This document shows, one piece after another, positions 16,073-64,000 of a stretch of DNA of 64,000 nt. Each line of letters begins with the position of its first letter. The first letter of the stretch is position 1. Source of the DNA: Candidatus Borrarchaeum weybense (GTDB lineage: Archaea; Asgardarchaeota; Sifarchaeia; Borrarchaeales; Borrarchaeaceae). Where the stretch lies: NCBI GenBank assembly GCA_019057385.1, contig JAHQJS010000007.1:384001-448000 (forward strand), in the 5' to 3' direction. Position numbers and translations under genes: made by a program. Under the pieces are notes generated by a model. That model did no database searches, was not told the origin of the DNA, and saw only the letters and a list, made by a program, of their open reading frames with translations.

Positions 16073-16263
16073 ATGAGATTAAGTCAATCACCCCCTAACA
16101 AGTTGGGGGGTCTCCTTGCGGTGGTAATTATGAACAGGAGAAAAAACTAAAAGAGATAGATTGGGACAACTTAGATTGGCAGGAATATCTTTGCGATTGT
16201 TGTCATGGAGGTAGTACTGCGCCTACAATTCGAAGCAAGGATAAAGATGCCAAACATGATTAA
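16073..16263 (+). pseudogene. 47-aa CDCCH-containing small ORF interrupted by a mini-element
   Basis: Removing 16083..16129 restores MRLNEQEKKLKEIDWDNLDWQEYLCDCCHGGSTAPTIRSKDKDAKHD*. Confidence 0.55.
16083..16129 (+). mobile_element. 47-bp IscB-type IS200/IS605 mini-element (fused ends)
   Basis: GTCAATCACCCCCTAACAAGTTGGGGGGTCTCCTTGCGGTGGTAATT|ATGA matches both termini of the 29670 and 58543 elements. Confidence 0.85.
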
Positions 16264-24621: not shown

Positions 24622-25815
24622 TTATTTGAGATTAAGGAATTGTTTTAAGTCTTCTAAATTCCTTTTAACAAAAAGCAAATTAGGATCAATTTCTAATGCT
24701 TTTTTATAACACTTTAACGCATTTTTGTGTCGATTTAACGCTCTGTAAGCAAGTCCCATAAGCCCCCACGCTTTTGCATTATTTGCATCGATCTCTACTA
24801 CTTTTTCAAATTGTTTAATAGCATTATGATACTTTCCTAAATAGTAAAAAGCAGTTCCCATTAGATTCCATGCATCTACATACATTATGTCGATTCTTAG
24901 TGCCTTTTCACAGTTTACAATAGTTTTACTATGATCTCCTAGTTTTCCATAAACAACACCCATATTATACCAAGCTTTGGCGAATTTCGGATTGATTTTA
25001 ATAGCTTTTTGAAAACATTTAATTGCTTTTTTGTGCTCTCCTAAATGATCATAGGCCAGACCAATAAGATTCCATGCATCTAAATAATCAGGATTGATTT
25101 CAAGCACTTTTTCAAGACATTCAATAGATCTTGTATGCTCACCTATCTCACCATGGGCTACTCCCATACTATACCATGCATCAGCATCTTGAGGATCAAA
25201 TTTTAACGCTACTTGATAACTGTTAATAGCATTTCTGTGTTCACCTAGCCTTCCATATGAGACCCCCATTTTATACCATGCATCAACATGATCTGATTTA
25301 AGATCTATTGCTTTCTTAAAACATTCAAATGCCTTATTGTGATCTCCCACCTCACTATATACTACACCTAAACTATACCACGCATCAGCTTTCTCTGGAT
25401 CGATTTCCAGTGCTTTTTCATAGGAATGAAGTATGTTTTTATAATCATTTAACCTCCCATAAGCCACTCCCATCATTAGCCAGGCATCTGAATTGTTAGG
25501 ATTTACATCCAAAGCTCTATGGTATGCTCCTACTGCATTTTCATATTCACCTAAATAGTAATAGGCACCACCCATGAGTATCCAAGCATCTACAAATTCA
25601 TAATCTATTTCTAAGGCTTTTTGATAACATTCAATCGCTTTCTTATAATCATCCAGTTTCCCATATGCTTTTCCCATAAGCGCTAAAATAATAGACTGTT
25701 TGTTATTTTCGTTAACCTTTAATGCTTTTTCGTATTCTTTTATAGCTTTTTTATATTTTCCTTCTTTATAGTGTTTATTTCCTTTGTCAATCATATTTTT
25801 AGGGCTTATCTGCAT
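24622..25815 (-). CDS. TPR-only protein
   Basis: About 11 regular 34-aa TPR repeats. Confidence 0.93.
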   Translation of the reverse strand: MQISPKNMIDKGNKHYKEGKYKKAIKEYEKALKVNENNKQSIILALMGKAYGKLDDYKKAIECYQKALEIDYEFVDAWILMGGAYYYLGEYENAVGAYHRALDVNPNNSDAWLMMGVAYGRLNDYKNILHSYEKALEIDPEKADAWYSLGVVYSEVGDHNKAFECFKKAIDLKSDHVDAWYKMGVSYGRLGEHRNAINSYQVALKFDPQDADAWYSMGVAHGEIGEHTRSIECLEKVLEINPDYLDAWNLIGLAYDHLGEHKKAIKCFQKAIKINPKFAKAWYNMGVVYGKLGDHSKTIVNCEKALRIDIMYVDAWNLMGTAFYYLGKYHNAIKQFEKVVEIDANNAKAWGLMGLAYRALNRHKNALKCYKKALEIDPNLLFVKRNLEDLKQFLNLK

Positions 25816-25911
25816 CCCTCTATCAATCTATTGAGTAATCATTTTTCGAATAACATTGAGATATTTTGTTTAGTCTTGTGCTAAATAAAAAACCCATCTA
25901 ACTATGAAGTT

Positions 25912-27099
25912 TCACTGGATGCTTTCTAATATTTCTAAATTCCTTTTAGCCAAGACCAATTCTGGATCTAGTTCTAGCGCCTTTCCATAATATTTGATCG
26001 CCTTTTTGAATTCATTCAAAGCCTCACAGGCAATTCCTAAAAGTTCCCATGATTTTGCATTCTCAGGTTCAATATTCAACGCTTGTTGATAGTATTTTAC
26101 TGCCTTTTCGTACTCACCTAAATTATAATAAAGTTGTCCTAAAAGATTCCATGGATCTGTATTCCTCGGATTGAGTTCCACGGCTTTCTGGCAATATTCT
26201 ATTGCCTTATCACGATCACCTAATTTTCCATAAGCTTCTCCTACATTATACCATGCTTTTGCAGATTCAGGATTGATTTTTAGCACTTTCTGATAAAAGT
26301 CAACAGCTTTATTATATTCGCCTAAATGGTAGTAAGCGTCTCCTAAATTGTACCAGAGGTCTGAATTTCCCGACTTCACTTCCAAGAATTTTTCATACCA
26401 TTCAATTGCTTTGTTATATTCACCTAACTCCCCGTACGCTATACCCATATCATACCAGGTAATTGTATCTTCAGGATTGATTTTTAAAACTTGATGATAA
26501 CAATTAACCGCATTCTGATGCTCACCTAATTTACTATAAGCGATTCCCATTTTGTACCAAGGATCTGAAAACACAGGTGTTATTTCCAATGAATTTTGAA
26601 AGCATTCGATGGCTTTGGTATGCATAAATAATTCTTCATACACCAAACCCATGCCATACCAAGCATCAGGATCATTTGGGTTTATATCAAGTGCTTTTTG
26701 ATAGCAATCAATGGTTTTTTCATGCTTGTCTAAAGTGCTGTAAACTACACCCATAAGAAGCCATGTATCTGCATTATCAGGCTTGATTTCAGCCGCGTGA
26801 TGATAGCAGTCAATGGCTTCTTTATATTTGCCTAAATAGTAGTATGAACCACCCATGAGCACCCAAGCATCTGCTTTTGTAGCATCGATGTCCATTGCTT
26901 TTTGATAGCAATCAATAGACTGCTGATGTTCACCTAGCTTTCCATGTGCCTTTCCCAAAAATATCCATGCAATATAGATATCTTCTGATTCTTCCAAGGC
27001 TTTTTTGTATTCTTTAATGGATTCTTTATATTCTCCTTGATCATAATAGGTTTTTCCTTTCTCAAGATGAATATTGTTTAGCATTTTAGCTTCACTCAT
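25912..27099 (-). CDS. TPR-only protein (start revised to ATG 27099)
   Basis: About 11 TPRs, paralog of neighbour; the longer ORF call overlaps the upstream gene. Confidence 0.9.
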   Translation of the reverse strand: MSEAKMLNNIHLEKGKTYYDQGEYKESIKEYKKALEESEDIYIAWIFLGKAHGKLGEHQQSIDCYQKAMDIDATKADAWVLMGGSYYYLGKYKEAIDCYHHAAEIKPDNADTWLLMGVVYSTLDKHEKTIDCYQKALDINPNDPDAWYGMGLVYEELFMHTKAIECFQNSLEITPVFSDPWYKMGIAYSKLGEHQNAVNCYHQVLKINPEDTITWYDMGIAYGELGEYNKAIEWYEKFLEVKSGNSDLWYNLGDAYYHLGEYNKAVDFYQKVLKINPESAKAWYNVGEAYGKLGDRDKAIEYCQKAVELNPRNTDPWNLLGQLYYNLGEYEKAVKYYQQALNIEPENAKSWELLGIACEALNEFKKAIKYYGKALELDPELVLAKRNLEILESIQ

Positions 27100-27172
27100 T
27101 CTTATGCTAAGAAAATCCCCTTCCCGGTGAATAATAAATTTTGTGGAGGGAGAGCTGATCGAGTTTGATGGA

Positions 27173-29038
27173 TCACATTTTAGGGGCTTTACTGTGCATT
27201 TTACATAAGTTATTGTCCATATCCCAACATTGCAAGCAAACCCAGCCCATGCATTCTGGGCAATAGTGAATTTCTTCAAAAATTTTCGATGCTCTAAGTT
27301 TTTCCAGTAATTTATCTTTCTCCTTTTGTGTAAGAAAAAAAGTTTGATCTGGAATCGTTTCCTTTTGCTTATAGAGATCTAATGCTTGCTGTAAATCTGT
27401 AGTTGCATGTCCATAGTCTCCTACTACAATTTTCGCTCCAAGTTTAATTCCATATGCTAACAGTTTTACCCATTTTCGCCATTCTTTATCGCGAATTTCA
27501 CCTATATGTTCTCCGTTGCAGCTACACGTAAAAATTAGCCGAAGCGTGTCCCTCAACTTTCCTGATATCACTTCTACGCGTGATGGAAGAGGAATTGTTT
27601 TCGCAATCTCACCAAGTTTTTCCCTAATAGCCATATCATGCTCTTCAATTCTTGAAATTGTTGTATGCAGTTTTTTAGCAATTTCATTAAGAAATCCGAC
27701 AATTAATTTTTCTGCTGGTGACAAAGCTGTTAGTTCTGCATCATTTCCTACCTTCTTGAGTAGGAGACCGAAAAATTCATGTTTTAAACTTTCACCAGAA
27801 AACTGTGCGTTATCCTCATTTACGTTTACTAAAGATAAGCCGCAGATCCTTTGAATTTCTTGAATGAGAACATCAAAATCTTCAACATTTTCTAGAACAA
27901 TAGTATTCTTTTTTAACGAATCTCTTGTACTTTCTTGCTGAAAGACATCTTGAGACACGAATTTCGGCTTTACAAACTGACACGCTTCAATAAACTTCCC
28001 AGGAACTTCTTTAATGATTCTATTATCCTGATAATCCCGGTAGAATAGAACTGCTCCAATCTTGCTGACTGTACAGATTCTAGGTCTTAAATAATAAATA
28101 GCTGTACGAGCTTCTCCTGGGCGAATTTTTTGAAGATAGACAAGACGACCTTCGGTTTGTGATCCTTCTGCACGTTTAAGATCAAGAATATCTTTCGGGT
28201 AATCCAGTTTAATATCCACGTCATGTATAACATATCGAGTATGATTCTCTACCCGAAAACCAAACTTGATAGTATCTCCCCATGGAACAAAACCCCGTTT
28301 CACAACAACTTCATTCTCTGTTTTCTCACAAATTAAAATCTTTGAAAATACCTCAGTGTCATCTTCTGAAACAATTACTTCTGTATCTGGAATGACATCA
28401 GGAAATGAATCAGAAGGAATTTCATTAGGTTTTGTGACTTCTTTTCTTTTTTGATCCAGTTCATGGAGTGCATGTTCTAGATTTTCTTTTGCACCCTTAT
28501 GATCGGGATTTATTTCTAAAGCTTTTTCATAGTAATAGATTGATCTGCTTAAATCTCCTAGATTTTGATATGCCTCTCCCATGTAATTCATAGCATTCTC
28601 AGATCTGTTATTGATTTTCAATGCTGCGTGAAAACACTCAATTGCCTCTTTATATTCCTCCATAGCCATCTTACACCAGCCTAAGTTGACCCAAGTATGC
28701 GCATCTTCTGATTTTAATTCCAGAACTTTGTCAAAACTTTCAATTGCCCATTTATACTTGCCCAATTCTTTGTATGCCATTCCCAAATTACGCCATCCCT
28801 CAATATTTTTAGGATAAAGATTTACGACTTCTTGAGCGCATTCAACAGCTTTCTTATAATTACCGATCATTCTATATGTGGCGCTTAGGGCATTCAAACC
28901 ATCAGCAAATTTGGGGGCAAGCTTTACAGCTATTTCGAAGTGTTCTTTGGCTTTTTTATAATTCTCTTGTGAAAAATGATACTTTCCGGTCCAAAAATAA
29001 TAATTTGCCTTTACAACATCAAGCATTTTTGGATACAC
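27173..29038 (-). CDS. TPR + adaptin/COP appendage-like + zinc-finger protein
   Basis: About 5 TPRs, beta-sandwich, FVKPKFVSQDVF, C-terminal CPEC..CLQC..C..H. Confidence 0.7.
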   Translation of the reverse strand: MYPKMLDVVKANYYFWTGKYHFSQENYKKAKEHFEIAVKLAPKFADGLNALSATYRMIGNYKKAVECAQEVVNLYPKNIEGWRNLGMAYKELGKYKWAIESFDKVLELKSEDAHTWVNLGWCKMAMEEYKEAIECFHAALKINNRSENAMNYMGEAYQNLGDLSRSIYYYEKALEINPDHKGAKENLEHALHELDQKRKEVTKPNEIPSDSFPDVIPDTEVIVSEDDTEVFSKILICEKTENEVVVKRGFVPWGDTIKFGFRVENHTRYVIHDVDIKLDYPKDILDLKRAEGSQTEGRLVYLQKIRPGEARTAIYYLRPRICTVSKIGAVLFYRDYQDNRIIKEVPGKFIEACQFVKPKFVSQDVFQQESTRDSLKKNTIVLENVEDFDVLIQEIQRICGLSLVNVNEDNAQFSGESLKHEFFGLLLKKVGNDAELTALSPAEKLIVGFLNEIAKKLHTTISRIEEHDMAIREKLGEIAKTIPLPSRVEVISGKLRDTLRLIFTCSCNGEHIGEIRDKEWRKWVKLLAYGIKLGAKIVVGDYGHATTDLQQALDLYKQKETIPDQTFFLTQKEKDKLLEKLRASKIFEEIHYCPECMGWVCLQCWDMDNNLCKMHSKAPKM

Positions 29039-29309
29039 TCCCCCAATAACCAGATTTCAACTCACGTAACATCTCATATTCTTGATATAAAATATCCTCT
29101 GAAGTTCTTGAAGTCTGCTTAGTTAAATACTACATTATTACTTATAAAACCCCATCAGCTTTCGGAAAATCTACAGCTAATCTTATATATGAAGGAAGCG
29201 TTTATATCTCAACCCGTGGGCGGGTTCTCAATACCAAGAAGAAAATACGTTAAATGTTCTAAAAACCGCTTTTTGACTAATACTGCACTTAAGCTAGGAG
29301 TGTGTGTAC

Positions 29310-29647
29310 TAGTAACTGCGCAAGCAAGCACCAAAGCTTCAATGTGGTGATGAATTGAGTGAGTGTGAACGTTCATCACTTGCATCGAAGGGTCTCCCTA
29401 ATAGTTATATAGAAGGTATGAAGAAAATAGTAACAGTAATTGGAGGGATAATACACATACTTGTAGACATGGTGCATACTCCGATTGCATTAAATAAAAG
29501 CAGTACCTACGGGACGTAGGGATGTTAAGCCTGTGGAGACTAAATCCTCTACTGAGGCCGTGGAATACCTCAATAGTATCCCCTAGGTCATAGCAAGTTC
29601 GGGCGTCGAAGCAGGATGCCTCAACGCTTTAGCGTGAGGTAGTTCAC
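29310..29647 (+). mobile_element. Non-autonomous TnpB-type IS200/IS605 element retaining omegaRNA region, no tnpB
   Basis: Left end gcaagcaagcacc...gatgaattg; tnpB 3' remnant VPTGRRDVKPVE; right-end hairpin cctcaacgctttagcgtgagg-tagtTCAC; left boundary approximate. Confidence 0.78.
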
Positions 29648-29669
29648 TAAGATGGAAATGCTAGAAGAA

Positions 29670-29960
29670 GTCAATCACCCCTTAACAAGTTAAGGGGCTT
29701 GTTCCGTGAGGAATAAGAGTAATTGGTTGATTAGCCTAAGAGAGGTCATGGTGGAAACAACATGACGGTATCTACGTTATCAGGAGAGTTAAAGAACGCA
29801 CCAAGGGATGCTTCTCTAGTCCCTTGCTCTGTAAACGGTGGTTTAAACAGAGAGGAAACTCTCAGTGATCATCGTATAGTACTGACTGATAACCTTGGCG
29901 AAGAGAACCTACTCCCTTGATGTTGGGAGCGACGGGACTTGCGAGTACCCGTCATTAAAA
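29670..29960 (+). ncRNA. HEARO / IscB omegaRNA scaffold
   Basis: GTCAATCACCCC..GGGGCTTG..GTTGATTAG..CTACGTT..GGATGCTTCTCTAGTCC..GGCGAAGAGAA pattern with pseudoknot complement; 3' end approximate. Confidence 0.8.
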
Positions 29961-30075
29961 CACCACCTGAGGTTAGGTATATCATCCCCTGTCTTCGTAG
30001 AAAGGGTTGTGTGAGCAACGCCCGGGATCAATTCCTCACCCCAACAAGTTGGGGGGTCTCCTTGAGGTAATAATT
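29670..30075 (+). mobile_element. Non-autonomous IscB-type IS200/IS605 element (406 bp), no iscB
   Basis: Terminal hairpins with AACAAGTT loop; second copy at 58543..58947; followed by ATGA. Confidence 0.88.
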
Positions 30076-30447
30076 ATGATGCCATTTCAAGAAATGATGG
30101 AACAGATGAAAAAACAAATCCGTGAAGGCATCAAACTAAAACGTCCTTCTCCTAATTCCATACAAATGTCAATTGATAAAAACATTGTGGATGAGAATAC
30201 AAGCTCTCAAATTCTGAATCTTGATGAGATGAAGAAAAACATAGGTGAAATCACAGGCAACCCTGAAGATTTGATTTCATTTGAAGCAGGCGATGATAAT
30301 ATTAAACTAGGTTTCAGTGGAGAGGAACCAGCTAATAAAGTGTTTCAGTTTCTAAACGAATTTCTTTACGGGGATATGTTAGATAAACTTATGAAGCCAT
30401 TTCTTGAAATGATGGAGCAGATGAAAAAGAGTTTTGGCGCTGAGTAA
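30076..30447 (+). CDS. Hypothetical Met-rich protein; first 6 codons (29652..29669) detached by insertion
   Basis: Empty site reads MEMLEE|MMPFQEMMEQMKK in frame; element end supplies GAGGT before ATG. Confidence 0.75.
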   Translation: MMPFQEMMEQMKKQIREGIKLKRPSPNSIQMSIDKNIVDENTSSQILNLDEMKKNIGEITGNPEDLISFEAGDDNIKLGFSGEEPANKVFQFLNEFLYGDMLDKLMKPFLEMMEQMKKSFGAE

Positions 30448-44087: not shown

Positions 44088-44215
44088 TTCTGTTTTACAA
44101 TTGCTTCGTGAACTACCACCCTACAAGTAGGGTGGCTTCCTGAATCATCCATTCCCCAGCGGGACATGTCAACCAGGCTCAACGGGCAGTCCCTGCCCTG
44201 ATGATAATGATGATG
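44088..44215 (-). ncRNA. TnpB omegaRNA with 3' guide GAAGCAATTGTAAAACAGAA
   Basis: Inferred from position overlapping the tnpB 3' end and right end; 5' boundary approximate. Confidence 0.6.
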
Positions 44216-45488
44216 ATCGTGCTTTTAAATAGTAAGTAGATCGATGTAAAACAGTGATGGCAGAATTATGGTCTCTCGCTAACACCAGTCCACAGTAAGG
44301 ACACCTGTGGATTCGGGTGGCCAGCGTTTTCGGTACCAGTTTTCCACACCGACTACACAGTTGTGTGGTGTGATAGGCACTCACATATTCTACCAGAGTA
44401 CCAGCTTCCTCCGCTTTGTACTCGGTAAAATGCATGAGTTGCCCCCATCCTGCGTCACTAATCGACTTAGCTAGATGATGGTTCTTCGCCATGTTGGTGA
44501 TCCTAAGTTTCTCATACACAATCAGGTCATAACTATCGACCAGTTTCCGACTGAGTTTGTGATGAAAGTCCTTCCGCTGATTGCGTATCTTCCTGTGTAC
44601 CCGTGCCATCTTCCTGTTCTGCTTGTGACGGTTATACGAGCCCTTAACCTTCCTGTCTTTCCTTCGCTGTTCTTTGGCTAATTGCTTCTCCGAGTGTCTC
44701 AACCAACGGGGGTTGTCTATTGTTTCGCCATTATTTAACGTTAACAAACTCTTCAACCCGACATCCACCCCTATCGCCTTCTGTAGCTCTCTTTTCTGAG
44801 ACTCAGGATCAGGATTATGCAGTGCTACTGCAAAACAAGCATACCAGTGGTCGACATCGCGTGTGATGGTGCAGGTCTTGACCTCGCCTTCAGATGGGAT
44901 AGGTCGGTGGAGTACGATGGTAATAGCTCCAATTTTCGAGAGTCGGAGTTTCTTGTTGTGGTAATCGAGGGCGAACCCACTTTGCGGGTAAGTGAAGGAA
45001 TCATACCGGTTTTTGCCTTTAAATCGTGGGTATCCGGCCTTTTCCCCCTTTTTAATGCGCCGAAAAAAGTGCTTGAAGCTCTTATCCAGTCGTCTCAGCA
45101 CGTCTTGCAGTACCTGCGAATGAACCGTTTTTAAAAATGGAGTGGTCTTTTTAGCGTCTTTTAATTGGTTGGCTTGCTCACCATACGTAACTGATTGTTT
45201 CTGAGTTTCCCAGGCATTTTTTCGCTCTGCCAGAGAGTTGTTATACAACAGTCGGCAAGTAGTAAGCCATTGAGTGAGAATAGTTGCCTGTGGTGTGGTG
45301 GGATACAAGCGAAATTTGTACGTACGTTTCATCACAGGTCTTCCTCTGTTCCCTTGAGCGTCATATCACTAACGATAGTATCCGCAAACAGCTATTTAAA
45401 CTGGGGGACACTACCGTGAAAGTAAAAACAGCAAAAAAACGCAATTCATCCCCCCCAACAAGTTGGGGGGTCTTCTTGCGAAGACATT
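44108..45488 (-). mobile_element. IS1341-type IS200/IS605 element (tnpB only)
   Basis: TTAT target, left-end hairpin 45449-45470, right-end hairpin ccaccctacttgtagggtgg-tagtTCAC; GC-richer than flanks. Confidence 0.92.
44169..45332 (-). CDS. tnpB: RNA-guided endonuclease TnpB
   Basis: YKFRLYPT, YPRFK, GVDVG (D), VYEKL (E), CSRCG/CPYCG, RDHNSA (D). Confidence 0.96.
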   Translation of the reverse strand: MKRTYKFRLYPTTPQATILTQWLTTCRLLYNNSLAERKNAWETQKQSVTYGEQANQLKDAKKTTPFLKTVHSQVLQDVLRRLDKSFKHFFRRIKKGEKAGYPRFKGKNRYDSFTYPQSGFALDYHNKKLRLSKIGAITIVLHRPIPSEGEVKTCTITRDVDHWYACFAVALHNPDPESQKRELQKAIGVDVGLKSLLTLNNGETIDNPRWLRHSEKQLAKEQRRKDRKVKGSYNRHKQNRKMARVHRKIRNQRKDFHHKLSRKLVDSYDLIVYEKLRITNMAKNHHLAKSISDAGWGQLMHFTEYKAEEAGTLVEYVSAYHTTQLCSRCGKLVPKTLATRIHRCPYCGLVLARDHNSAITVLHRSTYYLKARSSSLSSGQGLPVEPG

Positions 45489-46111
45489 ATAAATTCTTCT
45501 GTCGTGATAAGTTCGCAAGAAATATTTATTAGTTCTTCAATACCCTTTCCGTAGATCCCCGAAATCGCATCTTCAATGACTATCAACCTAAAACCCCGTT
45601 CACTTGCTTCATATATGGATGTTCTAGGGCAATTTGGGAAGTTACAGCCTGTAAAAACCAATGTTGTTATTCCTTTCTTTTGAAGGAAGTCTTCTAACGG
45701 CGTTTTGTAAAACGCTCCCCATCTGGGTTTATATATCACGAATTCGTTAGATGCTAACTCTTGGATTTCTCCACTCAGTAGTCTTTTTGCATCCAATTTA
45801 ACTTCATTAGGCTTTAGTTCTTTGACTAATTCAGCACCTTCAGAATTTGGAGCAACTACTTTTAATCCATCTTCCACTTTCTTTTTTCTACAGATATCAA
45901 CATTAGAACCATCTTCTTTGTAGAGTCTTATTATGTGGATTATTGGTTTACTCTTTTCTCTGAATCGTTTTAGAATTTTAACCATATTAGGAATTACATC
46001 ATCATAGGTTCCTTTAATCTCACAGATCGCATCTTTTAGCGAGAAATCATTTTGTGTATCAATTGTAAGCAATGCACTATTCTCATAATCTGGTTCTGTG
46101 TATTTAGCCAT
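45446..46111 (-). CDS. Isochorismatase/cysteine hydrolase; C-terminus replaced by IS sequence
   Basis: IDTQNDF, KPRWGAF, GCNFPNC; native tail MKQL* lies beyond the IS at 44095..44107. Confidence 0.88.
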   Translation of the reverse strand: MAKYTEPDYENSALLTIDTQNDFSLKDAICEIKGTYDDVIPNMVKILKRFREKSKPIIHIIRLYKEDGSNVDICRKKKVEDGLKVVAPNSEGAELVKELKPNEVKLDAKRLLSGEIQELASNEFVIYKPRWGAFYKTPLEDFLQKKGITTLVFTGCNFPNCPRTSIYEASERGFRLIVIEDAISGIYGKGIEELINISCELITTEEFIMSSQEDPPTCWGG

Positions 46112-53814: not shown

Positions 53815-56800
53815 ATGAGAAAGAATTATATTTTCATCATCGTTCTGATCAGTCTATTAGCATCTAGTATGATTGTTAACGATGCGATGCGTGTTTATGC
53901 TCAGACTGATATTGAGGATTTCGTTGATAACAATTCAAGTGATATAGACACTTCACCAGATATAGGCAATCATTATGATTTTGATAAAGAGAAAGCCAAT
54001 GATTCTGATTTTGATACCTTAAATGAATCCTTAATTGTGACTCCTCCCATAAAAGATTTCGTTGATAACAATTCAAGTGACGTAGATTCTTCTTCGAATT
54101 TAGGGGCGCATTCTAATTTTACAGCCATGCAATATGGTCCAGACTCAATATATGATAACATAACTGAGGTGAATAACGCTGGCATGGTCAATACGACGCT
54201 CATTGATGCAGAATCCTTTGAAGGAGCTTGGCCTCCATCTGATCCATCTGACTGGACTGAAACTGGACGATGGAACAAAGAAAGCGATTTTGTGCCTTCT
54301 GGTGGTGGAACCTATTCAGCGGATATTGAACATTCTGGGGGTTATTATTCAGAGTCAGGAGATTTGATCACCGCTGATTTAGATTGCTCTGATGCGGCAG
54401 CAATATATGTGAGTTTCTATTTTAGAGAAGCCGTTAGCGCGGATACCGAGTTTCAGCTATACTTTTGGAATGGGGCGACGTGGGTTAACATCGAAGATTT
54501 GGGTCAGGGTTATTCGCCAGGTTGGAACCTTTGGGAAATGGAAGTCACCGACAGTCAATATTTCAAGTCAGATTTCAAAATTCGTTGGAGAGCAAATGCG
54601 ATTGAGAGCGGTGAAAACGCGAATGTTGATTTGGTTACCGTAAAAAAGGAAACACCCCTCCCCGATAATTACGCATTAAATTTAGAAGTACAATTTACTG
54701 CAGTTCCCTATTCTCTAGCCAGTGAAACACTCTGTATCTATATGGGTTATAATGGCACTGAAGCTATTAGGGTAGATTATTGGAATGGAACTGGCTGGGA
54801 GAATGTTTTCACGTATTTAAATAACAGTTCTTGGAATAACGCATCAGTCTCAGTAACGAATTCTAATTTTACCATTAGATTTAATGGCACTATAGAATCA
54901 GGTGATACCACGCAGGATTATTATCTGATAGATTGTGTTATTTTGAGACTTGAGGGTGATGGCCATAACGAATTTGTTGTTCAAAATCAAGATTCGGATG
55001 TTGATGGAACTGGGGATGCAGGAGAAATTATTGATTTCTCCAATATGACTGCTTCCGACACTAATATGACCCTTTTGAACGAGACAATTGAAACTGGCGG
55101 CGATCCCAACGAATATTCTATTGATTTGACTGGCGGATATATTAGTTGCGCTACTGCTGATATAGGTGTAGCAGCTGGAACTATTTCATTCTGGATTCAA
55201 TTTGATTCGACAACTTCAGGCAGACCCGTTGGAATGAATGGCAATGAAGAATTAAGACTTAGTAATAGCATTTTATATGCTGATTGGGGAGAAAGCGGAC
55301 CAAGTTTTACTTCTGATACTACCTTTACAATAGGTACATGGTATTTCGTGGCAGTCACATGGGATGAAACAGCAAACGATCTTTTTCTATATGTTGGAAC
55401 AGAAACAACAACACCTTCTTTAGATGCAGGTAGTTCCGCTGCGGGAAGTTGGACAGGAACGACATCAACTATTCCTCAAGCTGCAGTCTATTGGGGAAAT
55501 GGATATGGTTTTTCTGAACCAGTAAATGGGCACATGGATGATATACGTTTTTACGATACAGTAAGAACCTTGAGCGAAATCCGTAGTGATTATAACCAGA
55601 CTCTAACAGGAACTGAAACAGATCTCGTGAATTATTATAAATTAGAGAATGATTATACCGATTCTGCTGCTGGAAATGATGATGGGACTCTTTCTGGCTC
55701 TGGTGCTTTCTCAACCGATGTACCCTCATGGGAGGTTGGTAGTGGTGGTACTAATTTTATTTTAGACCAAGAAGTTCAATGGACTAATATTCCCTCGAAT
55801 TTGCTAAATGAGTATCTATGTATAAAAACGGGAACGTTTTCAGGAACGGAGAAGATATTGGTTGATGCCTGGAATGGAACTGACTGGGAAAACCTCTTTG
55901 ACGATTTGGACGCTAACTGGAATAATGTTTCAATTGCTGATTACCTGACTAGTTCCACTTTTACCATAAGATTTAGGGATGACAACACCACAGAAGATAG
56001 CAGCATTCATGATACATGGGAAATCGATGTTGCACTAATTCACATTTGGAACGAAGACGAGGTTTACAAATTAGACCTAGAGGTTCAATTTGAAGAACCG
56101 CTATTTGCTGATGAATATTTTGAAAAATTATGTATAAAAACAGGAGCATTCTCAGGAATAGAGGATCTTTTAGTTGATGTATGGGATGGTTCACAATGGC
56201 AGGAGGTTCCTGATTTAAATCCATTAAATCCAAATGTTTGGAATAATGCGAGTGTCGCATCATATCTAATAAGCAGTACGGAGAACTTCACAATTCGGTA
56301 TAGGGGAGGTTCTGAGACTTCAGACGATGTACCGGATACATGGCAAATAGATGCTGTTTTACTACATACTTACACTCCATTTGATGATGCGCCCCCAAAC
56401 ATTTCTTGGGGATCAAATCAATTTACAAATGATATAGGAACTCACCAGGTTCATATAGATGTTGACGCAGAAGATATATATTTCGGATCTGGTATTGATA
56501 CGGTTTGGTATCGCATTTGGAACGTTTCATCTGGAATCGAATGGGTTCCTGATCATAATAATGTTTCTTTATCCTTGTCTTCTGGTTATGAGATCGATAT
56601 CAATGTTTCAACTTGGCATCCCTCAACTGAGTACTATGTAGAGGCGTTTGCGACTGACAACTCAGCCCTGAAAAATGAAAATACTACTCAAAATATCACT
56701 GGAGATGAATACAGGTACTTCACGATTGTACACGGCATTGACGTGAGTCAACCAACGGTAACTTACTCGGGGGGTTCAATACAAGAACTAGACATTTCTG

Positions 56801-58410
56801 TTGCAAACGTTAGCTGTAGTTATGCAGCACATGGACCGTTAACTATCAGCAACACCGCACCAGACGTTCATAACTACACAATTTATACTATTGGAGAATT
56901 ATCAACAGGTATTACTGGATTTTTATATCCTTATCAAGAGATGTGGCAAGCTTTCGATGTTGACATCTCTAGTCTGCCTGATGGCGATTATTATGTTCAA
57001 TGCGATTTTGAAGATTCGTGGGGACATACGGGGACAAGCCCCCCTTCCATCAGTTTCACAAAAACAACTGATACCAGCAATGGTGGAGGCAATGGTGGCG
57101 GAGATGGTTCTAGTGATGGAGGTGGTAGCGATGGAACAAGCACGAATACCTTCCTTCTCAATTTCCTGAACAATTTTTACGGCACTAAGCCTGGCCAAAC
57201 AGTAACATTATCAGGAACTATCAGTTCAAATGAAAATGGAAAACTTCTAACGATCACCTTTGAGGGTGAAACGTACACGGCGTATACATTCAATAATGGT
57301 GAATTCGAAGTTACGCTCACGGCACCAAATACCTATGGCAGTTACACTGTTACTGCAAAATTTGCAGGCGATTCAAGCTGGGAAAGTACGAGTACGACTT
57401 GTCAACTCCTTGTTGTAGAAAAAGAAACACAAATGACTATTGATATCGATGGTAACCTAGCTATTGGCGAGCAAATTACGATCCAAACTACCTTGACAAC
57501 AGAAAATGGAGATCTAATGCCTGGTGAGAAGATCACCATCTATATCTATGAGCGAACAAATTCCGTCTCAACTAGTACGCTCTTGACGTCTTCAGGTGTA
57601 AGAGTGTTTTCGGTAGATACACGATATTGGGATTTAATCGCAACATATGAGATTACAACCGATGAGAATGGCAAAGCGACTATTGAGTTGACGATTTCTA
57701 CTGATCAGGATGTACAGATCGTAGCAGAATACGCAGGCAAAATTGAAGGCGAAGGCGGAGAGAACTTAGGTCCATCAATTGTAACATATGTGGAAGGCGA
57801 AACAGGGCCTTTTATTTTAATGTCAAGTGAAATGTTGTATCTTTTCGGAGGAATATTGGCAACAGTCTTAGTGATAGGCTTAATTGTAGTGAAGAAAACG
57901 GATCTCCTTTCAGTTATTATCCAACGGGAGAAAATAGAAGAGACTGTTATACTATCACAAGATCTACTTGATCCAACTCGTTTCGGAATAAAAGCGGTAT
58001 TTATGATTGTGTTTGATCCAGTTATAGGCCCTATGATTAAAGAAAGTCGATTTTTTGATTTTCAAGTTGAGTTTTTCAACGACCTTAAGGATCCTTCAAA
58101 GCTTACACTCTTTTATTCAATGAGTGCAACAAAAGAGCAGTTTAAACTTGAAGAAAAGAATGAACACATTTTTGTAAAATCTGCAACAACATTGATAATC
58201 AATGAAGCAGATATGACAGTTTCTGGCGAAACAGTAGCTCCAAACCTGATCATAGTAATTGCAAAGAAAGGATGTAATGAGAATTTTGTGTGGAAGTTCA
58301 TAAATACAGTCTTGGTAGGATGGTCTGACCATCAGGGATATCTGGTACATCAAATGGATCGTTTGGATTCTGAAAATATGATAGATTTAGGTATCCTCAG
58401 TCTTTTTTAA
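53815..58410 (+). CDS. Giant single-pass surface glycoprotein (LamG-like and Ig-like domains) with cytoplasmic longin/uDENN-like tail
   Basis: Signal peptide, WYFVAVTW..GHMDDIRFY LamG motif, internal repeats, Gly linker, TM, VFDPVIGP. Confidence 0.8.
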   Translation: MRKNYIFIIVLISLLASSMIVNDAMRVYAQTDIEDFVDNNSSDIDTSPDIGNHYDFDKEKANDSDFDTLNESLIVTPPIKDFVDNNSSDVDSSSNLGAHSNFTAMQYGPDSIYDNITEVNNAGMVNTTLIDAESFEGAWPPSDPSDWTETGRWNKESDFVPSGGGTYSADIEHSGGYYSESGDLITADLDCSDAAAIYVSFYFREAVSADTEFQLYFWNGATWVNIEDLGQGYSPGWNLWEMEVTDSQYFKSDFKIRWRANAIESGENANVDLVTVKKETPLPDNYALNLEVQFTAVPYSLASETLCIYMGYNGTEAIRVDYWNGTGWENVFTYLNNSSWNNASVSVTNSNFTIRFNGTIESGDTTQDYYLIDCVILRLEGDGHNEFVVQNQDSDVDGTGDAGEIIDFSNMTASDTNMTLLNETIETGGDPNEYSIDLTGGYISCATADIGVAAGTISFWIQFDSTTSGRPVGMNGNEELRLSNSILYADWGESGPSFTSDTTFTIGTWYFVAVTWDETANDLFLYVGTETTTPSLDAGSSAAGSWTGTTSTIPQAAVYWGNGYGFSEPVNGHMDDIRFYDTVRTLSEIRSDYNQTLTGTETDLVNYYKLENDYTDSAAGNDDGTLSGSGAFSTDVPSWEVGSGGTNFILDQEVQWTNIPSNLLNEYLCIKTGTFSGTEKILVDAWNGTDWENLFDDLDANWNNVSIADYLTSSTFTIRFRDDNTTEDSSIHDTWEIDVALIHIWNEDEVYKLDLEVQFEEPLFADEYFEKLCIKTGAFSGIEDLLVDVWDGSQWQEVPDLNPLNPNVWNNASVASYLISSTENFTIRYRGGSETSDDVPDTWQIDAVLLHTYTPFDDAPPNISWGSNQFTNDIGTHQVHIDVDAEDIYFGSGIDTVWYRIWNVSSGIEWVPDHNNVSLSLSSGYEIDINVSTWHPSTEYYVEAFATDNSALKNENTTQNITGDEYRYFTIVHGIDVSQPTVTYSGGSIQELDISVANVSCSYAAHGPLTISNTAPDVHNYTIYTIGELSTGITGFLYPYQEMWQAFDVDISSLPDGDYYVQCDFEDSWGHTGTSPPSISFTKTTDTSNGGGNGGGDGSSDGGGSDGTSTNTFLLNFLNNFYGTKPGQTVTLSGTISSNENGKLLTITFEGETYTAYTFNNGEFEVTLTAPNTYGSYTVTAKFAGDSSWESTSTTCQLLVVEKETQMTIDIDGNLAIGEQITIQTTLTTENGDLMPGEKITIYIYERTNSVSTSTLLTSSGVRVFSVDTRYWDLIATYEITTDENGKATIELTISTDQDVQIVAEYAGKIEGEGGENLGPSIVTYVEGETGPFILMSSEMLYLFGGILATVLVIGLIVVKKTDLLSVIIQREKIEETVILSQDLLDPTRFGIKAVFMIVFDPVIGPMIKESRFFDFQVEFFNDLKDPSKLTLFYSMSATKEQFKLEEKNEHIFVKSATTLIINEADMTVSGETVAPNLIIVIAKKGCNENFVWKFINTVLVGWSDHQGYLVHQMDRLDSENMIDLGILSLF

Positions 58411-58542
58411 TTGGAATAAAACGATCTAGCGTGTTTCTGTTTTTTCTGTTTTATCTTTTTTTAAGAAGAAGGGAACAATGGGACAACTGCATTCTCATCA
58501 AATTAAAAAAGGAGTTAGTTGTGTGCTATTTTTCCACTTCAT

Positions 58543-58947
58543 AAGATTACCTCAAGGAGACCCCCCAACGTGTTGGGGAGAGAAATTGAGGTCAGGTATT
58601 TGACCATACAACCCTTTCTGCGGGGACAGGGGTTGGTGTACCCGATCTCGGGTGGTGTTTTAATGACGGGTACTCTCAAGTTCCGTCGCTCCCAACACCA
58701 GGGAGTTGGTTCTCTTCGCCAAGGTTATCAGTCAGTATTATACGGTGATCACTGAGAGTTTCCTCTCTGTTTAAACCACCGTTTACAGAGCAAGGGACTA
58801 GAGAAGCATCCCTTGGTGTGTTCTTTAACTCTCCTGGTAACGTAGATACCGCCATGGTTGTTTCACCACGACCTCTCTTAGGCTAATCAACCAATTGCCC
58901 TTGATCCTCACGGAACAAGCCCCTTAACAAGTTAAGGGGTGATTGAC
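58543..58947 (-). mobile_element. Non-autonomous IscB-type IS200/IS605 element (405 bp), second copy
   Basis: Colinear with 29670..30075; followed by ATGA. Confidence 0.88.
58655..58947 (-). ncRNA. HEARO / IscB omegaRNA scaffold, copy 2
   Basis: Same motifs as copy 1 with stem-preserving substitutions. Confidence 0.8.
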
Positions 58948-59060: not shown

Positions 59061-59265
59061 GTGAGCTACCTCGTGCTAAAGCATCGAGGCTTCCTGCTTC
59101 TACGACAGACTCGATCCCCTTGCGGGTTACAGAGGGGTTATCTCCACAGGCGTAAATCCCCTACGCCCCGTAGGTACTCATAGGGGATATTACAAAAAAA
59201 ACTATATAAACACCATACAATTCATCATTAGGCCAAAGCATTGGTGCTTTCTTGCTTAATTGTCT
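59061..59265 (-). mobile_element. 205-bp TnpB-type element: left end, TATA box, omegaRNA, right end
   Basis: TTAC|agacaattaagcaagAAAGcacc..; TTTATATA 59210-59203; gtacctacggggcgtagggg..cctgtggag..GAAGcctcgatgctttagcacgaggtagcTCAC. Confidence 0.82.
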
Positions 59266-59435: not shown

Positions 59436-59462
59436 TCACGGCTTAAGCGTGAGGTAGTTCAT
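59436..59462 (+). mobile_element. IS200/IS605 right-end remnant
   Basis: tcacggcttaagcgtgaggtagttca, similar to 29621..29647. Confidence 0.6.
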
Positions 59463-62400
59463 TCTTCGAAGCTGTATGTTCTTATTTTTACTACAACGAA
59501 CTCTCCTTTGTCTTTTGAAAAGATGCCGTTGAGATAATTCTTATCAACTAGAATTTGAATTATACTCTCTGCTTCCTCTGCTGAAGTTCCGAATTCTGCA
59601 GCGATATCACTAAACTTAACTCGTTTCTTGTCTTCTTCGCCTATATAATCTAAGATCTGATAATCTAGTTGGTCTTTAATCAAATTGTTTTCATTGAGTT
59701 CTATTTTACAGTTAGGACAACGTTCATTTGCTCGAACGTACCCTAAATAGAGATCTTTATGGCCATACACCTTGCAATAGGGACATCTGATATATTCCTC
59801 ACCAGACTGGATGTCGAGCCCACAAATGACGCATTTCACTCTCTTTTGACCACAATTTGGACACTCGTCAGCTTCTTCGGGAATAACAAAACCGCATTTC
59901 ACACATAATGTTTGTCTCTCATACATTTTCGCCTCAGCTTCTCTTGATCGAAGATATTCAATCGGTAAAATATCTTTATAATCTTTAGCAAGTGTCGAAA
60001 ACACTATTGACGCATCAGCATATTTGCCTGCTTCCATTGACTCATCTGCAGTAAGTAATGAAGTAATTGCAGTTAAATATCTTTCTGCTACGTTTTGTTT
60101 TTCCCTATCTTTTGCCTTTGTGAAAAGCGTAACAGCTTTACGAACATTGTTCAAGGCTTCTTTGAAGTTCTTTTTCATTAACAATTCGACAGCATAATCA
60201 AAATACATTTTACCAGCTGTTTCATATGTTTCGGCAAGTCTATAGGCCCTTTCTGCAAGAACATAAGATTTTAGACGTCGATATTTTTCCCCTAAGTTGA
60301 ACCATAGTTCAATAGCTTTTTCCAAACTTATTTTTTCTTCAACTAGTTTGGCAAGGTCGATATACATAGACTCTGCAACAAGACATGTTTCAGCAGCCTC
60401 TTCTATTTTACCTACTTTAATAAAGTCTCGTACTGCAGTCTCATAATCTCTTCCTTCTCTAGCCCCTACGGCACTCTTGTATCTTCGTCTCTTACGTGAA
60501 TACACAAGAGCTGCTAAGCCAATAACGGCAAGTAATCCACCCATTCCAACCATTATTTCCATATCTGGAAGGGCTGGCTGTATAGTTACCACAAAACTTT
60601 TTGTTGCACTTACATAATCGTTTTTCTCAGCAGTTAGAATGCACAAGTACGTCGCTGTAGCAATGCTACTAGTATCAATATCTGCTGTATAAAGCCCTCC
60701 ACCAAGTTCGTCAAATGTAATCCAGGTTCTATTGCCAATATTCAATACAACATTAGCGCCTTCAACGCCTTTTTCGAATTCATCTGTTACATTCACCGAA
60801 ATCGTCATTATTGTACCCTGTCTGAAAGTATTGCTAGCCAATGAATGTAATAGGTATAAACGGTGTGAAGGAGTCGTATCACCATCACCGCCACCACCGC
60901 TGCTTCCACCGCCATCACTACTTCCACCATCTCCACCGCCACGGTCACCACCACCACCACCGGACTCGGTCACAGTGTAAGTGTAAGCTGAACTGGTATT
61001 ACTATTTCCTGCACTATCGAAAACTTGGAAGAAGTAAACTACAACAGTTCCCGCAGATTGGGCGGGGATCGTTCCGCTATATGAATTACCGTATTGCATA
61101 AGAATTGAGGGCCTTGGTGAGCCGTTTACTGTATAATTTAAGTATACATTTAAGACGGGCGGATCTACGAATGGTAAATCATCAGGGTTAGGTATTGTGA
61201 TAGTAACGTCATCATTATCATCAGGATTCGCAACTGATTGTTGTGGAACAAAAGGATCTGGAAGTTCAGGAGGAATATCATCGACTATCAGAGTATTCCC
61301 GTTTTCAGTTTCTCCCGAAATTTCGAGGTTATCAAAGGCAATTATATCAATGAAATATATCTCTGATGATCTACCTGTAGAATCCCAAGTATTGGTATAG
61401 ATGTCATCTCCAGATGTGGCATCACTGTGCGTCCCGTCATCATATAACCGTATTATAGCAATATCTATTTCATTTGGGAATTGAATATAAGCAGTTACGT
61501 TTTTGACACCTGAAGGAAAGTCTATAACATATGCGGTTATGAGAAACTCTGTGCCTGAAGTACCTGCAGAAGGATTAGTTTGAACATTAGAAACTACAGG
61601 AGGATCATCGTCAATTATAAATGTTGCTACGTTCTCTGTTTCTCCTTGGTTCTCAACATTATCAAAAGCGATGATATCTATATAATATTCTCCCGAAAGT
61701 TGCCCAAATGAGTCCCAGGTACCTCCATAGGTACCATCTCCAGCTATCCCATCATTATGATTCCCATCGTCATAAAGACGCACACTATCTATTGTAGTTT
61801 CATCCGGTAGTTGGATATAAGCAGTTACGTTCTTGATTCCAGAGTCACCATCAAAAACATCAGCAGTAATATTGAAAAGTGTGCCAGATTTTTCTGCAGT
61901 TGGATCAACTAAGGCATTGGAAATAGTTGGTGCTGTATTGTCTATTAAGAAAATATCACCGTTTTCTTCTTCCCATTGGTTATTTGCATTGTCAAAGGCA
62001 ATTATATCAACGAAATATGTTCCTTCAGGTTGTCCAGAGGAGTCCCAATTGTTTCCATAGGTGCCATCTCCGGCGGCTCCATCATTATGGTTTCCATCAT
62101 CGAATAACTGTAAGATAACAATATTAATCTCATTTGGATGTTGAATGTATGCTGTTACGTTCTTGACACCCGAGAGTGTGTCTGTTACAAAAGCAGTTAC
62201 ATTAAAAGTAGTTCCTGAAGTTCCAATATTTGGATTTACCACAACATTGATTGAGGGAATTACTGGAGGTGTATCATCAACAATCAGAGTTTCTGCATTT
62301 TCAATTTCACCTTGATTGTTATCATTATCAGTTGCGACTATATCGATATAATACAATCCTTCTGATTCACCAGCAGAATTCCAGCTGTTTCCGTAGATAT

Positions 62401-64000
62401 CATCTCCTGCCAGTCCATCATTATGATTACCATCATCATATAACTGTAATATTGCAATATTTGTTTCATCTGGCAGCTGAATGTAGGCGAAAACATCTCT
62501 GACACCAGAAACGTCGGTAACAGTGGCAGTTATATTGAAAAGTGTTCCAGATTGTCCTATAGCAGGAATTACTTGTATGTTAGTTACACTTGGAGGATTG
62601 TTTATTATGAAAATATCCCCATCTTCTACTGATCTTTGATTTTCTACATTATCGAAAGCAATTATATCAACGAAATATGTTCCTTCAGGTTGTCCAGAGG
62701 AGTCCCAATTGTTTCCATAGGTGCCATCTCCGGCGGCTCCATCATTATGGTTTCCATCATCAAATAACTGTAAGATAACAATATTAATCTCATTTGGACG
62801 TTGAATATAAGCTGTCACATTTTTTACTCCTGATTGCACATCTGTTACAATTGCAGTTATTACAAAAATAGTTCCAGTTTCTCCCTGTGACGGCGTTACT
62901 TGGATATTTTGCGATAATGCTTCAGGAGGAGTCTTATCGATGCCAAAGAATCTAGCATTTGTTCCTGAAAGCTGAATTTCGTTTCCGAGTGAATCATTTG
63001 CGAAAATTTCTACCCTATAATAATTGACAATTGAACGCCACCCTGAAGTGTCTATATTAAGAGTATAATCAGGACCAAGCAGAGTTTGATTATTATATGC
63101 AGGGACATAAACACTTGAAGAGATATTATAAATTCTAAACCAAACCGTATCAACAACATTCTGCAAATCAGTTGCGTCCACATCAATAACGACCTGATCG
63201 ATCCACCAGGTATCATTGGCAAAATTATTCGTGTCCCAGGTTAAAACAGGTGGCGCATTATCAACTCTAAAGAATCGGGCATCGATCCCTGCTAGTTGCA
63301 TTTCATTACCGGCAGAATCGTTCGCAAAAACTTCTACTCTGTAGTAGGTAGAAGCAGAATTCCACCAAGAGGTGTCTATTGTAGTATTAAAATGAGGACC
63401 TAACAAACTAGCGTTATTGTGGCCTGGAACGTATTCACTAGCAGAGATATTGAAAATTCTATACCAGACTGTGTTCAATTGTAATAAATCGATTGCATCC
63501 ACATCGATAACGACTTCACCATTCCACCAGGTATCATTTGCAAAATTTTCAGTATCCCAATTTAGAGTAGGCAGATCAAGATCAATTCTAAAGAATCGTG
63601 CATCGATTCCGATCAGTTGCGTTTCATAACCTGAGGTATCGTTAGCAAAGACCTCTACTCTGTAATATATATCTGCAGAATGCCAGCTGGAAGTATCGAT
63701 AGTTGTATTGAAATCAGGACTTGAAAGGCTGGCATTATTGTGTCCGGGAACATAGTCACTTGAGGAAACATTATAGATTCGATACCAAACGAATTCGACA
63801 GTTTGTTCCAAATCTACTGCATCTACATCAATGACAACCTGACTATTCTGCCAAGTATCATTAACAAAATTATTGGTGTCCCAATTCAGGGTAGGTGGAT
63901 TTCGATCTATTCCAAAGAACCTAGCTTCCGTTCCAGTTAGTTGTGCTTCATTTCCTATTGTATCATTAGCAAAAACTTCTACTCGATAGTAGATATTTGC
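59459..64000 (-). CDS. Giant single-pass surface protein (Ig-like and DDGxHxDxxxGDxxY repeats) with cytoplasmic helical repeats, zinc ribbon, RING-like and PCI-like domains; 5' end beyond window
   Basis: Frame open to 64000; five DDGxHxD repeats; TM then RKRRR; CVKC..CPNC, CVIC..CPYC..H..CPNC; winged-helix end. Confidence 0.82.
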   Translation of the reverse strand, partial: ANIYYRVEVFANDTIGNEAQLTGTEARFFGIDRNPPTLNWDTNNFVNDTWQNSQVVIDVDAVDLEQTVEFVWYRIYNVSSSDYVPGHNNASLSSPDFNTTIDTSSWHSADIYYRVEVFANDTSGYETQLIGIDARFFRIDLDLPTLNWDTENFANDTWWNGEVVIDVDAIDLLQLNTVWYRIFNISASEYVPGHNNASLLGPHFNTTIDTSWWNSASTYYRVEVFANDSAGNEMQLAGIDARFFRVDNAPPVLTWDTNNFANDTWWIDQVVIDVDATDLQNVVDTVWFRIYNISSSVYVPAYNNQTLLGPDYTLNIDTSGWRSIVNYYRVEIFANDSLGNEIQLSGTNARFFGIDKTPPEALSQNIQVTPSQGETGTIFVITAIVTDVQSGVKNVTAYIQRPNEINIVILQLFDDGNHNDGAAGDGTYGNNWDSSGQPEGTYFVDIIAFDNVENQRSVEDGDIFIINNPPSVTNIQVIPAIGQSGTLFNITATVTDVSGVRDVFAYIQLPDETNIAILQLYDDGNHNDGLAGDDIYGNSWNSAGESEGLYYIDIVATDNDNNQGEIENAETLIVDDTPPVIPSINVVVNPNIGTSGTTFNVTAFVTDTLSGVKNVTAYIQHPNEINIVILQLFDDGNHNDGAAGDGTYGNNWDSSGQPEGTYFVDIIAFDNANNQWEEENGDIFLIDNTAPTISNALVDPTAEKSGTLFNITADVFDGDSGIKNVTAYIQLPDETTIDSVRLYDDGNHNDGIAGDGTYGGTWDSFGQLSGEYYIDIIAFDNVENQGETENVATFIIDDDPPVVSNVQTNPSAGTSGTEFLITAYVIDFPSGVKNVTAYIQFPNEIDIAIIRLYDDGTHSDATSGDDIYTNTWDSTGRSSEIYFIDIIAFDNLEISGETENGNTLIVDDIPPELPDPFVPQQSVANPDDNDDVTITIPNPDDLPFVDPPVLNVYLNYTVNGSPRPSILMQYGNSYSGTIPAQSAGTVVVYFFQVFDSAGNSNTSSAYTYTVTESGGGGGDRGGGDGGSSDGGGSSGGGGDGDTTPSHRLYLLHSLASNTFRQGTIMTISVNVTDEFEKGVEGANVVLNIGNRTWITFDELGGGLYTADIDTSSIATATYLCILTAEKNDYVSATKSFVVTIQPALPDMEIMVGMGGLLAVIGLAALVYSRKRRRYKSAVGAREGRDYETAVRDFIKVGKIEEAAETCLVAESMYIDLAKLVEEKISLEKAIELWFNLGEKYRRLKSYVLAERAYRLAETYETAGKMYFDYAVELLMKKNFKEALNNVRKAVTLFTKAKDREKQNVAERYLTAITSLLTADESMEAGKYADASIVFSTLAKDYKDILPIEYLRSREAEAKMYERQTLCVKCGFVIPEEADECPNCGQKRVKCVICGLDIQSGEEYIRCPYCKVYGHKDLYLGYVRANERCPNCKIELNENNLIKDQLDYQILDYIGEEDKKRVKFSDIAAEFGTSAEEAESIIQILVDKNYLNGIFSKDKGEFVVVKIRTYSFEE
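61998..62806. repeat. Intragenic 149-bp direct repeat (61998..62146 and 62658..62806)
   Basis: Two mismatches by eye; 660-bp offset. Confidence 0.9.

Follow-up and report, generated by a model that had tools for sequence, protein, structure and literature searches.

Transposons of the IscB (ISC) type, in the IS200/IS605 superfamily, are known to target N|ATGA (ISC1-1_MA, ISC2-1_HM, and ISC2-1_MS), and have termini in common with oppositely oriented TnpB elements (IS605B partners) (Kapitonov, Makarova, and Koonin, 2016; PMC4810608). The HEARO RNA is the IscB omegaRNA; it lies at the right end of the transposon, its 5′ guide is external, and the target-adjacent motif (TAM) is TTCAT; this guide needs transcription from outside, and iscB elements tend to be oriented like the gene upstream of them (Meers et al., 2023; bioRxiv 10.1101/2023.03.14.532601). 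The same study described PATE-like, protein-less copies that encode an omegaRNA, in the ISGst families of Geobacillus stearothermophilus. Here, we describe three loci in a 64,000-nucleotide (nt) stretch of Candidatus Borrarchaeum weybense (contig JAHQJS010000007.1, positions 384,001 to 448,000; “the window”), from a genome of 4.18 Mb, 37% G+C, and 8 contigs. Taken as a whole, the loci are very probably non-autonomous elements of the ISC type in the IS200/IS605 superfamily that have lost iscB: two PATE-like elements of ~405 nt and a 47-nt mini-element. They represent an element type that is already known, here with well-defined limits and in a new host lineage, an Asgard-type archaeon. Published work already covers protein-less omegaRNA carriers, ATGA as target and TAM, the guide/cleavage rule, and the orientation bias, and the element class itself adds little to it. 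The possibly new part is statistical: IscB-type ends tend to abut start codons and to carry GAGG at the position of a Shine–Dalgarno (SD) motif.

Both full copies match HEARO (Rfam RF02033) over the whole model (positions 1–211), at 29670–29912 on the plus strand (130.8 bits, E 7.6e-27) and at 58947–58705 on the minus strand (129.6 bits), and both exceed the gathering score of 83 bits; they had been proposed as IscB-type omegaRNAs in a preliminary description of this DNA, and the matches bear this out. The copies extend over 29670–30075 (+; 406 nt) and 58947–58543 (−; 405 nt), with a mutual identity of ~90%. HEARO model position 1 falls on 29670, where the sequence missing from the empty site in a congeneric genome (G004) begins; the scaffold start coincides with the transposon end, and the guide lies outside, in the flank. 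Neither full copy in the window contains an open reading frame (ORF) of any size. The 377–409-nt copies contain no ORF of at least 150 aa, and no iscB gene (RRXRR-HNH-RuvC) stands immediately downstream. The third locus, 16083–16129 (+), is a single-hairpin remnant or mini-element of 47 nt, in which the 5′ 12 nt and the 3′ tail flank one hairpin. As had been noted, all three are directly followed by ATGA (30076, +; 58542–58539, −; 16130, +), and the full copies end in GAGGTAATAATT|ATG and GAGGTAATCTT|ATG.

The window copies resemble the PATE-like copies of G. stearothermophilus in having no ORF while retaining both subterminal hairpins and the omegaRNA (Meers et al., 2023). They agree with the IscB system of that study in the right-end HEARO scaffold with an outside guide, in the motif (TTCAT is the complement of ATGAA), in the presumed provision of TnpA and nuclease in trans, and in the bias to upstream-gene orientation. 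They differ from it in the Asgard-type archaeal host, in the coexistence of ATGA, ATAA, and GTGA subfamilies, in the 47-nt single-hairpin minis, and in the start-codon position and GAGG at an SD position, which are absent from that paper. With the N|ATGA elements of Kapitonov et al. (2016), they share the 5′-GTCA terminus, insertion 5′ of ATGA without duplication, ATAA and ATCA variants, a 3′ terminus common to opposite-strand TnpB elements, and presumed mobilization by a Y1 transposase in trans; those elements encode IscB, however, whereas the window elements have lost it. As full-length matches they are like other members of RF02033, but have no adjacent HNH ORF and have ~160 nt more of conserved sequence on the 3′ side. 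The parts of the three loci, and a related left end, are as follows.

29654–29669, plus strand: predicted 5′ guide of the omegaRNA, the last 16 nt before the element (by analogy with Meers et al., 2023).
29670–29912, plus strand: IscB omegaRNA scaffold (HEARO, Rfam RF02033), with a 5′ boundary at the empty-site breakpoint.
First 32 nt of the 29670 copy: TnpA right end (complementary strand), comprising GTCA, ATCA, a hairpin at 29678–29697, and CTTG.
29913–30030, plus strand: extra conserved structure 3′ of the Rfam model, with two hairpins and a long-range helix, including the variable ACCT/AGGT hairpin.
30031–30075, plus strand: TnpA left end (complementary strand), from the rule-defined end at length 406 and the fold. 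In order: the outer-stem 5′ arm (degenerate here), a CCCC/GGGGGG hairpin at 30039–30056, the guide complement TCTCC at 30057–30061, TTGAGG at 30062–30067, and the tail TAATAATT.
30076–30079, plus strand: ATGA, predicted as the TAM of IscB; its complement, TCAT, is the TnpA target.
58543–58947, minus strand: second full protein-less omegaRNA element, 405 nt, intergenic between convergent genes, followed by ATGA at 58542–58539.
16083–16129, plus strand: mini derivative consisting of 5′ GTCAATCA, one hairpin, and the 3′ tail, inserted in a small ORF and followed by ATGA at 16130.
45453–45489, plus strand: related left-end hairpin of the TCTTC type, with flank ATAA; the end of a TnpB element.

In IS608, each cleavage tetranucleotide is reportedly recognized through pairing with the four bases 5′ of a hairpin, crossed at positions 1 and 2 and direct at position 4 (AAAG/TTAC and GAAT/TCAA). 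The same scheme fits the window elements, as had been proposed for them: on the complement of the omegaRNA strand, the order is TCAT|left end … right end TGAC|, and the tetranucleotides 5′ of the hairpins, GAGA (left) and CAAG (right), give the pairings GAGA/TCAT and CAAG/TGAC. The distance from the left cleavage site to the hairpin (18–19 nt) is also as in IS608, whereas the target sequence differs and the right cleavage site is just 4 nt from the hairpin. Across subfamilies the left-end pairing covaries, with TCTCC/ATGA, TCTTC/ATAA, and CTTCC/GTGA (sequence after the hairpin in the omegaRNA sense/flank), and an autonomous IS605 has an ACTTC/ACTTT end and flank TTAA. ATGA thus follows all three window loci but is one of several targets in the family, whose close relatives are flanked by ATAA. 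The right-end pairing fits the rule but is invariant, and is therefore uninformative as a test of it. A search downstream of HEARO starts that used only the guide/cleavage rule and a G-rich hairpin foot gave an end at 377–409 nt or 1291–1540 nt past the start in 20 of 36 cases.

The imperfect hairpins are subterminal at both ends (29678–29697 and 30039–30056), and there are no terminal inverted repeats. G004 is ~99% identical around the 29670 copy but does not have the element; at its empty site ATGGAGATGCTAGAAGAA is joined directly to ATGAAAAAACAA. For the mini copy, the empty site in G004 reads ..gagattaa|ATAAacagg, with ATAA rather than ATGA as flank. For another copy, inserted in the window genome precisely where the leader of an FKBP-type gene meets its start codon, the empty site is found in three congeners and reads ..gttaaaa|ATGAGCGAA. 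No target duplication was found at any of these three loci compared with congeners, and all three copies lie next to a tetranucleotide, as in insertions of the IS200/IS605 superfamily. The empty-site search for the 58947 copy gave repeat matches only. The ends, the presence/absence polymorphism at 29670, the HEARO matches, and the covariation described below uphold the proposal of a mobile guide-RNA gene with a conserved structure.

The window genome has 36 HEARO matches, 16 RRXRR (IscB) loci, and ~41 TnpB matches; the one RRXRR locus inspected encodes RRXRR and HNH domains. The window subfamily comprises nine near-identical copies of 380–409 nt without an ORF, and eight of the nine full copies are flanked by ATGA or ATAA. 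A sister set has the 3′ 170 nt in common with this subfamily and differs in the first hairpin. At least four intact iscB elements of a sister subfamily are flanked by ATGA, and their scaffolds are 89–93% identical to the window copy over positions 24/25–243. Four congeneric, incomplete genomes add few further full copies. There is a single Y1_Tnp gene (131 bits; Y1 HUH TnpA), located within an IS605 that has tnpA and tnpB. The description of the window elements as standalone holds in cis, with intact IscB genes in ATGA-flanked elements and one TnpA gene elsewhere in the genome.

The only tnpA is in contig C7 (194191–195880), where it overlaps tnpB. The ends of this IS605 predict a TTAA target (guide AAGT), unlike those of every IscB-type subfamily that it is presumed to mobilize. 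The ~47-nt minis (5′ 8–12 nt, one hairpin, 3′ tail) recur near 105357 of contig C3, and three further single-hairpin minis belong to another subfamily (C2:8662, C4:917715, and C6:553906). Mini copies may transpose as such or arise via deletion between two near-identical hairpins.

In the favored account, the two full elements consist of an IscB omegaRNA scaffold (HEARO and ~120 nt of further structure) between the two subterminal hairpins recognized by TnpA, which would find both cleavage sites via the crossed pairings GAGA/TCAT and CAAG/TGAC, and would cut and paste single-stranded DNA 3′ of TCAT without target duplication. By analogy with described systems, the single TnpA of the genome would move the copies in trans, and host transcription from the 5′ flank would yield an omegaRNA with ~16 flanking bases as its guide. 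Intact IscB from an ATGA-flanked element elsewhere would then load this RNA and cut the empty donor joint at the guide match plus ATGA, and recombination would restore the element. Several observations weigh against parts of this scheme. The full-length element nearest to the window copies has an iscB broken by TGA, so that the IscB partner would have to come from a sister subfamily. The only element that encodes TnpA has the target TTAA and somewhat different hairpins, which makes cross-mobilization an assumption. In the 29670 copy, the outer stem at the left end is degenerate; together with 30 extra nt beyond that end (see below), this means that the copy may no longer be mobile.

Protein-less copies might instead be domesticated guides that act in trans, kept by the host or by IscB elements to steer IscB to genomic or foreign targets. 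Their scaffolds are intact, with HEARO scores equal to those of iscB-linked copies, and many copies exist alongside intact IscB. Each guide, however, is the flank of its own insertion site and matches that locus only, and the presence and absence of copies between congeners are as for recent transposition, not conserved host genes. We therefore consider domestication very improbable.

Structural conservation extends past the Rfam model, where ~160 nt of conserved sequence and structure lie on the 3′ side. An alignment of the 3′ 180 nt of 21 copies (RNAalifold and pair counts) supports the terminal hairpin, a long-range helix, and two hairpins that vary little or not at all. In total, paired cells make up 95.4%, and both sides are changed in 10 pairs, values above those of shuffled and slid controls, the consensus structure having been derived from the same alignment as the pair counts; the terminal hairpin (helix 7) has 4 pairs with changes on both sides. 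Covariation across copies, as anticipated, is thus found in the 3′ region. The specific stem-preserving change that had been pointed out (ACCT..AGGT vs. ACCC..GGGT) is compensatory, but is present in one copy only, and several copies have lost this hairpin by deletion. The outer stem of the left end also covaries between families (CCTCAA/TTGAGG, CCGCAA/TTGCGG, and CGCCTCT/AGAGGCG).

With one TnpA, 16 IscB loci, ~40 TnpB matches, and dozens of derivatives without a protein gene, this genome provides a natural control of IscB-type against TnpB-type ends, which have the same hairpin plan. In ~10 of 24 IscB-type elements, a sense ORF of at least 100 codons starts 0–14 nt past the left-end junction (5 of 10 iscB-bearing and 5 of 14 protein-less elements), and in the five iscB-bearing cases the long ORF starts 0–11 nt after it. 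Using 25 trials, P = 2e-10 against all ATGA, ATAA, and GTGA sites, and P = 2.5e-4 against sites outside coding sequence (intergenic or start-proximal). Against the TnpB-type left ends as an internal control, a sense start lies within 0–14 nt of 9 of 20 rule-defined IscB-type ends vs. 2 of 35 (P = 9e-4). IscB-type elements are thus enriched just ahead of sense gene starts; their flanks include ATAA and GTGA besides ATGA. The genes behind docked elements include an FKBP-type and a HEPN-like gene, both on contig C4, a PurM-like gene, and an 853-codon ORF that is Rad50-like by eye. The junction ATG is the native start codon of the FKBP-type gene (from empty sites) and of the HEPN-like gene, and both ORFs are intact; in congeners, four more copies are followed by long ORFs that begin at the junction ATG or at a start close by.

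This position in front of sense start codons fits the need for an outside promoter, and is a sharper form of the published bias to upstream-gene orientation. Survivorship might account for it: insertion would occur at any accessible TCAT, copies inside genes would be purged, and untranscribed copies would lose homing and decay, with GAGG a feature of the transposase hairpin alone and the genes behind the elements weakened or dead. Among ATGA sites outside coding sequence, 14–18% are already start-proximal, which leaves an excess of only ~2.5-fold, and Meers et al. (2023) explained the orientation bias by the dependence of the guide on transcription from outside. The host gene at 30076 in the window bears two insertions in its 5′ end, which also accords with survivorship. 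On the other side, conserved genes behind elements retain intact ORFs, and the 113 codons of the window host gene shared with G004 have 5 differences, all synonymous, though the insertion may be recent.

Alternatively, IscB-type elements, unlike the TnpB-type elements that the same transposase presumably moves, may have evolved to settle ahead of start codons, through a TAM/target that contains a start codon (ATGA or GTGA), a working GAGG at the optimal SD distance, and the sense orientation needed for the guide; the host promoter would be captured for the guide while the host gene was still translated. The 3′ end of the 16S rRNA is GGATCACCTCCT, in which ACCUC of ..GGAUCACCUCCU pairs with GAGGU, and ahead of long ORFs in the genome GAGG is most frequent at −11 and −12. 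Measured from the junction, the GAGG of the elements falls on just these positions (−11 or −12 in the ATGA and GTGA types; −12 in the 29670 copy), and so combines complementarity to the 16S 3′ end with the usual distance from the start codon. GAGG is present at −15 to −8 in 16 of 20 IscB-type ends vs. 3 of 35 TnpB-type ends (P = 1e-7). It is plausible, with moderate support from sequence statistics, that an element can restart translation of the downstream gene, and GAGG at −11/−12 may keep that gene translated. Neither Kapitonov et al. (2016), with 0 occurrences of start codon or Shine–Dalgarno terms, nor Meers et al. (2023) refers to a start codon or a ribosome-binding motif where the element ends, and a full-text literature search found no paper that mentions docking at start codons.

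The same motif has a second role, which favors survivorship: TTGAGG is the 3′ arm of the left-end outer stem (CCTCAA/TTGAGG), which covaries between families, so that recognition by the transposase may explain it. The TnpB-type control speaks against the hairpin as the full explanation of the SD-like motif: TnpB-type ends share the outer stem but seldom have GAGG, and the stem alone therefore does not require it. Further points count against an evolved fit to start codons. In three of four copies, GAGG is paired in the predicted minimum-energy fold, in hairpins of −22 to −28 kcal/mol, so that the motif would not be accessible in these predicted folds. At 29670–30075, where the partner arm is mutated, GAGG is only loosely paired and so more exposed; this mutation may also have made that end unfit for transposition. 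The docking tests were post hoc and used crude ORF calls and mutually related copies, and as the IscB-type ends come from few related lineages, the P values overstate independence. When the TAM is held at ATAA, docking is found at 2 of 6 IscB-type vs. 2 of 35 TnpB-type ends (P = 0.095). The mini copy shifts the frame of its host ORF, and it and one 3′-end insertion disrupt host ORFs. On balance, survivorship alone falls a little short of an even prospect; that the ends carry a working start codon and SD motif for the benefit of the downstream gene is doubtful, and we propose evolved docking ahead of start codons only tentatively. If true, insertion would be near-harmless, and the host gene would become the final cistron in a transcript of the type omegaRNA(-iscB)-gene. 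Confirmation would account for how elements whose guide depends on host transcription occupy the 5′ leaders and start codons of conserved genes without killing them, and would imply that the choice of target motif is shaped by host gene syntax.

The host contexts of the three loci differ. All had been described as lying inside host ORFs in sense orientation, with an ATG that is in frame at 30076 and out of frame at the other two sites. The 29670 copy agrees with this, as does the mini copy, which interrupts, in sense orientation and out of frame, a small SD-preceded ORF conserved in G004. The 58947 copy is intergenic: it lies between two convergent long genes that end at 58410 and 59459, and the sole “host ORF” there has 21 codons. 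The features around the host gene of the 29670 copy are as follows.

29310–29647, plus strand: a protein-less TnpB-type omegaRNA element (element X), 338 nt, with boundaries within ~3 nt.
29652–29669, plus strand: native first six codons of the host gene, ATG GAA ATG CTA GAA GAA (from the G004 orthologue).
30076–30105, plus strand: 30-nt segment (10 codons) foreign to the native N-terminus and lacking in all orthologues.
30076–30447, plus strand: present host ORF (123 codons and a stop); its product, a small protein conserved in Promethearchaeota, is the candidate for restart.

The ATG at 30076 is in frame and opens the 123-codon frame, for which no Pfam family was matched. It had been concluded that the host gene loses only 6 codons. 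The frame is as described, but the orthologues show the next 30 nt (10 codons) to be foreign: G004 and six other homologues run from MEMLEE straight into MKKQ, so that those 30 nt arrived with the element. That the segment is native and was deleted in G004 is ruled out by its absence from all six homologues. It resembles the 3′ region of the same gene (30391–30420; 26 of 30 positions identical in the window genome and 27 of 30 in G004), which also precedes an ATGA. An earlier copy may have sat at the 3′ site of the host gene, or of a homologue, and been cut at the next TCAT, with 30 nt carried along.

Element X sits between the SD of the host gene (AGGAG) and its ATG, and is missing in G004. 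Its 3′ 145 nt match regions directly downstream of tnpB genes elsewhere in the genome, and its family has 75 BLAST matches in the genome. Comparison with tnpB loci identifies it as a plus-strand TnpB-type omegaRNA element, which rules out a reverse-oriented, HEARO-like element. Its right end (..GGTAGTTCAC|) is 22 nt ahead of the HEARO start, so that the same 22 nt would serve as the 3′ guide of element X and the 5′ guide of the HEARO copy. A remnant of the same TnpB-type family lies at 59061–59178 (−), 104 nt upstream of the second HEARO copy, and its terminal hairpin has two compensatory changes relative to the copy at 29600–29647.

The window also contains a TnpB element at 44169–45489, with tnpB at 44169–45335 (−; 388 aa) and a left-end hairpin of the TCTTC type at 45453–45489, flanked by ATAA; ~35 such TnpB left ends occur in the genome. 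At 24800–29040 (−), a long gene (621-aa ORF at 27173–29038, continuing upstream) has 102-nt periodic repeats, which most likely encode 34-residue TPR-like units. The giant convergent ORFs at 53815–58410 (+) and 59459–63811 (−) encode 1531 and 1450 aa, the second with internal repeats of ~330 nt.

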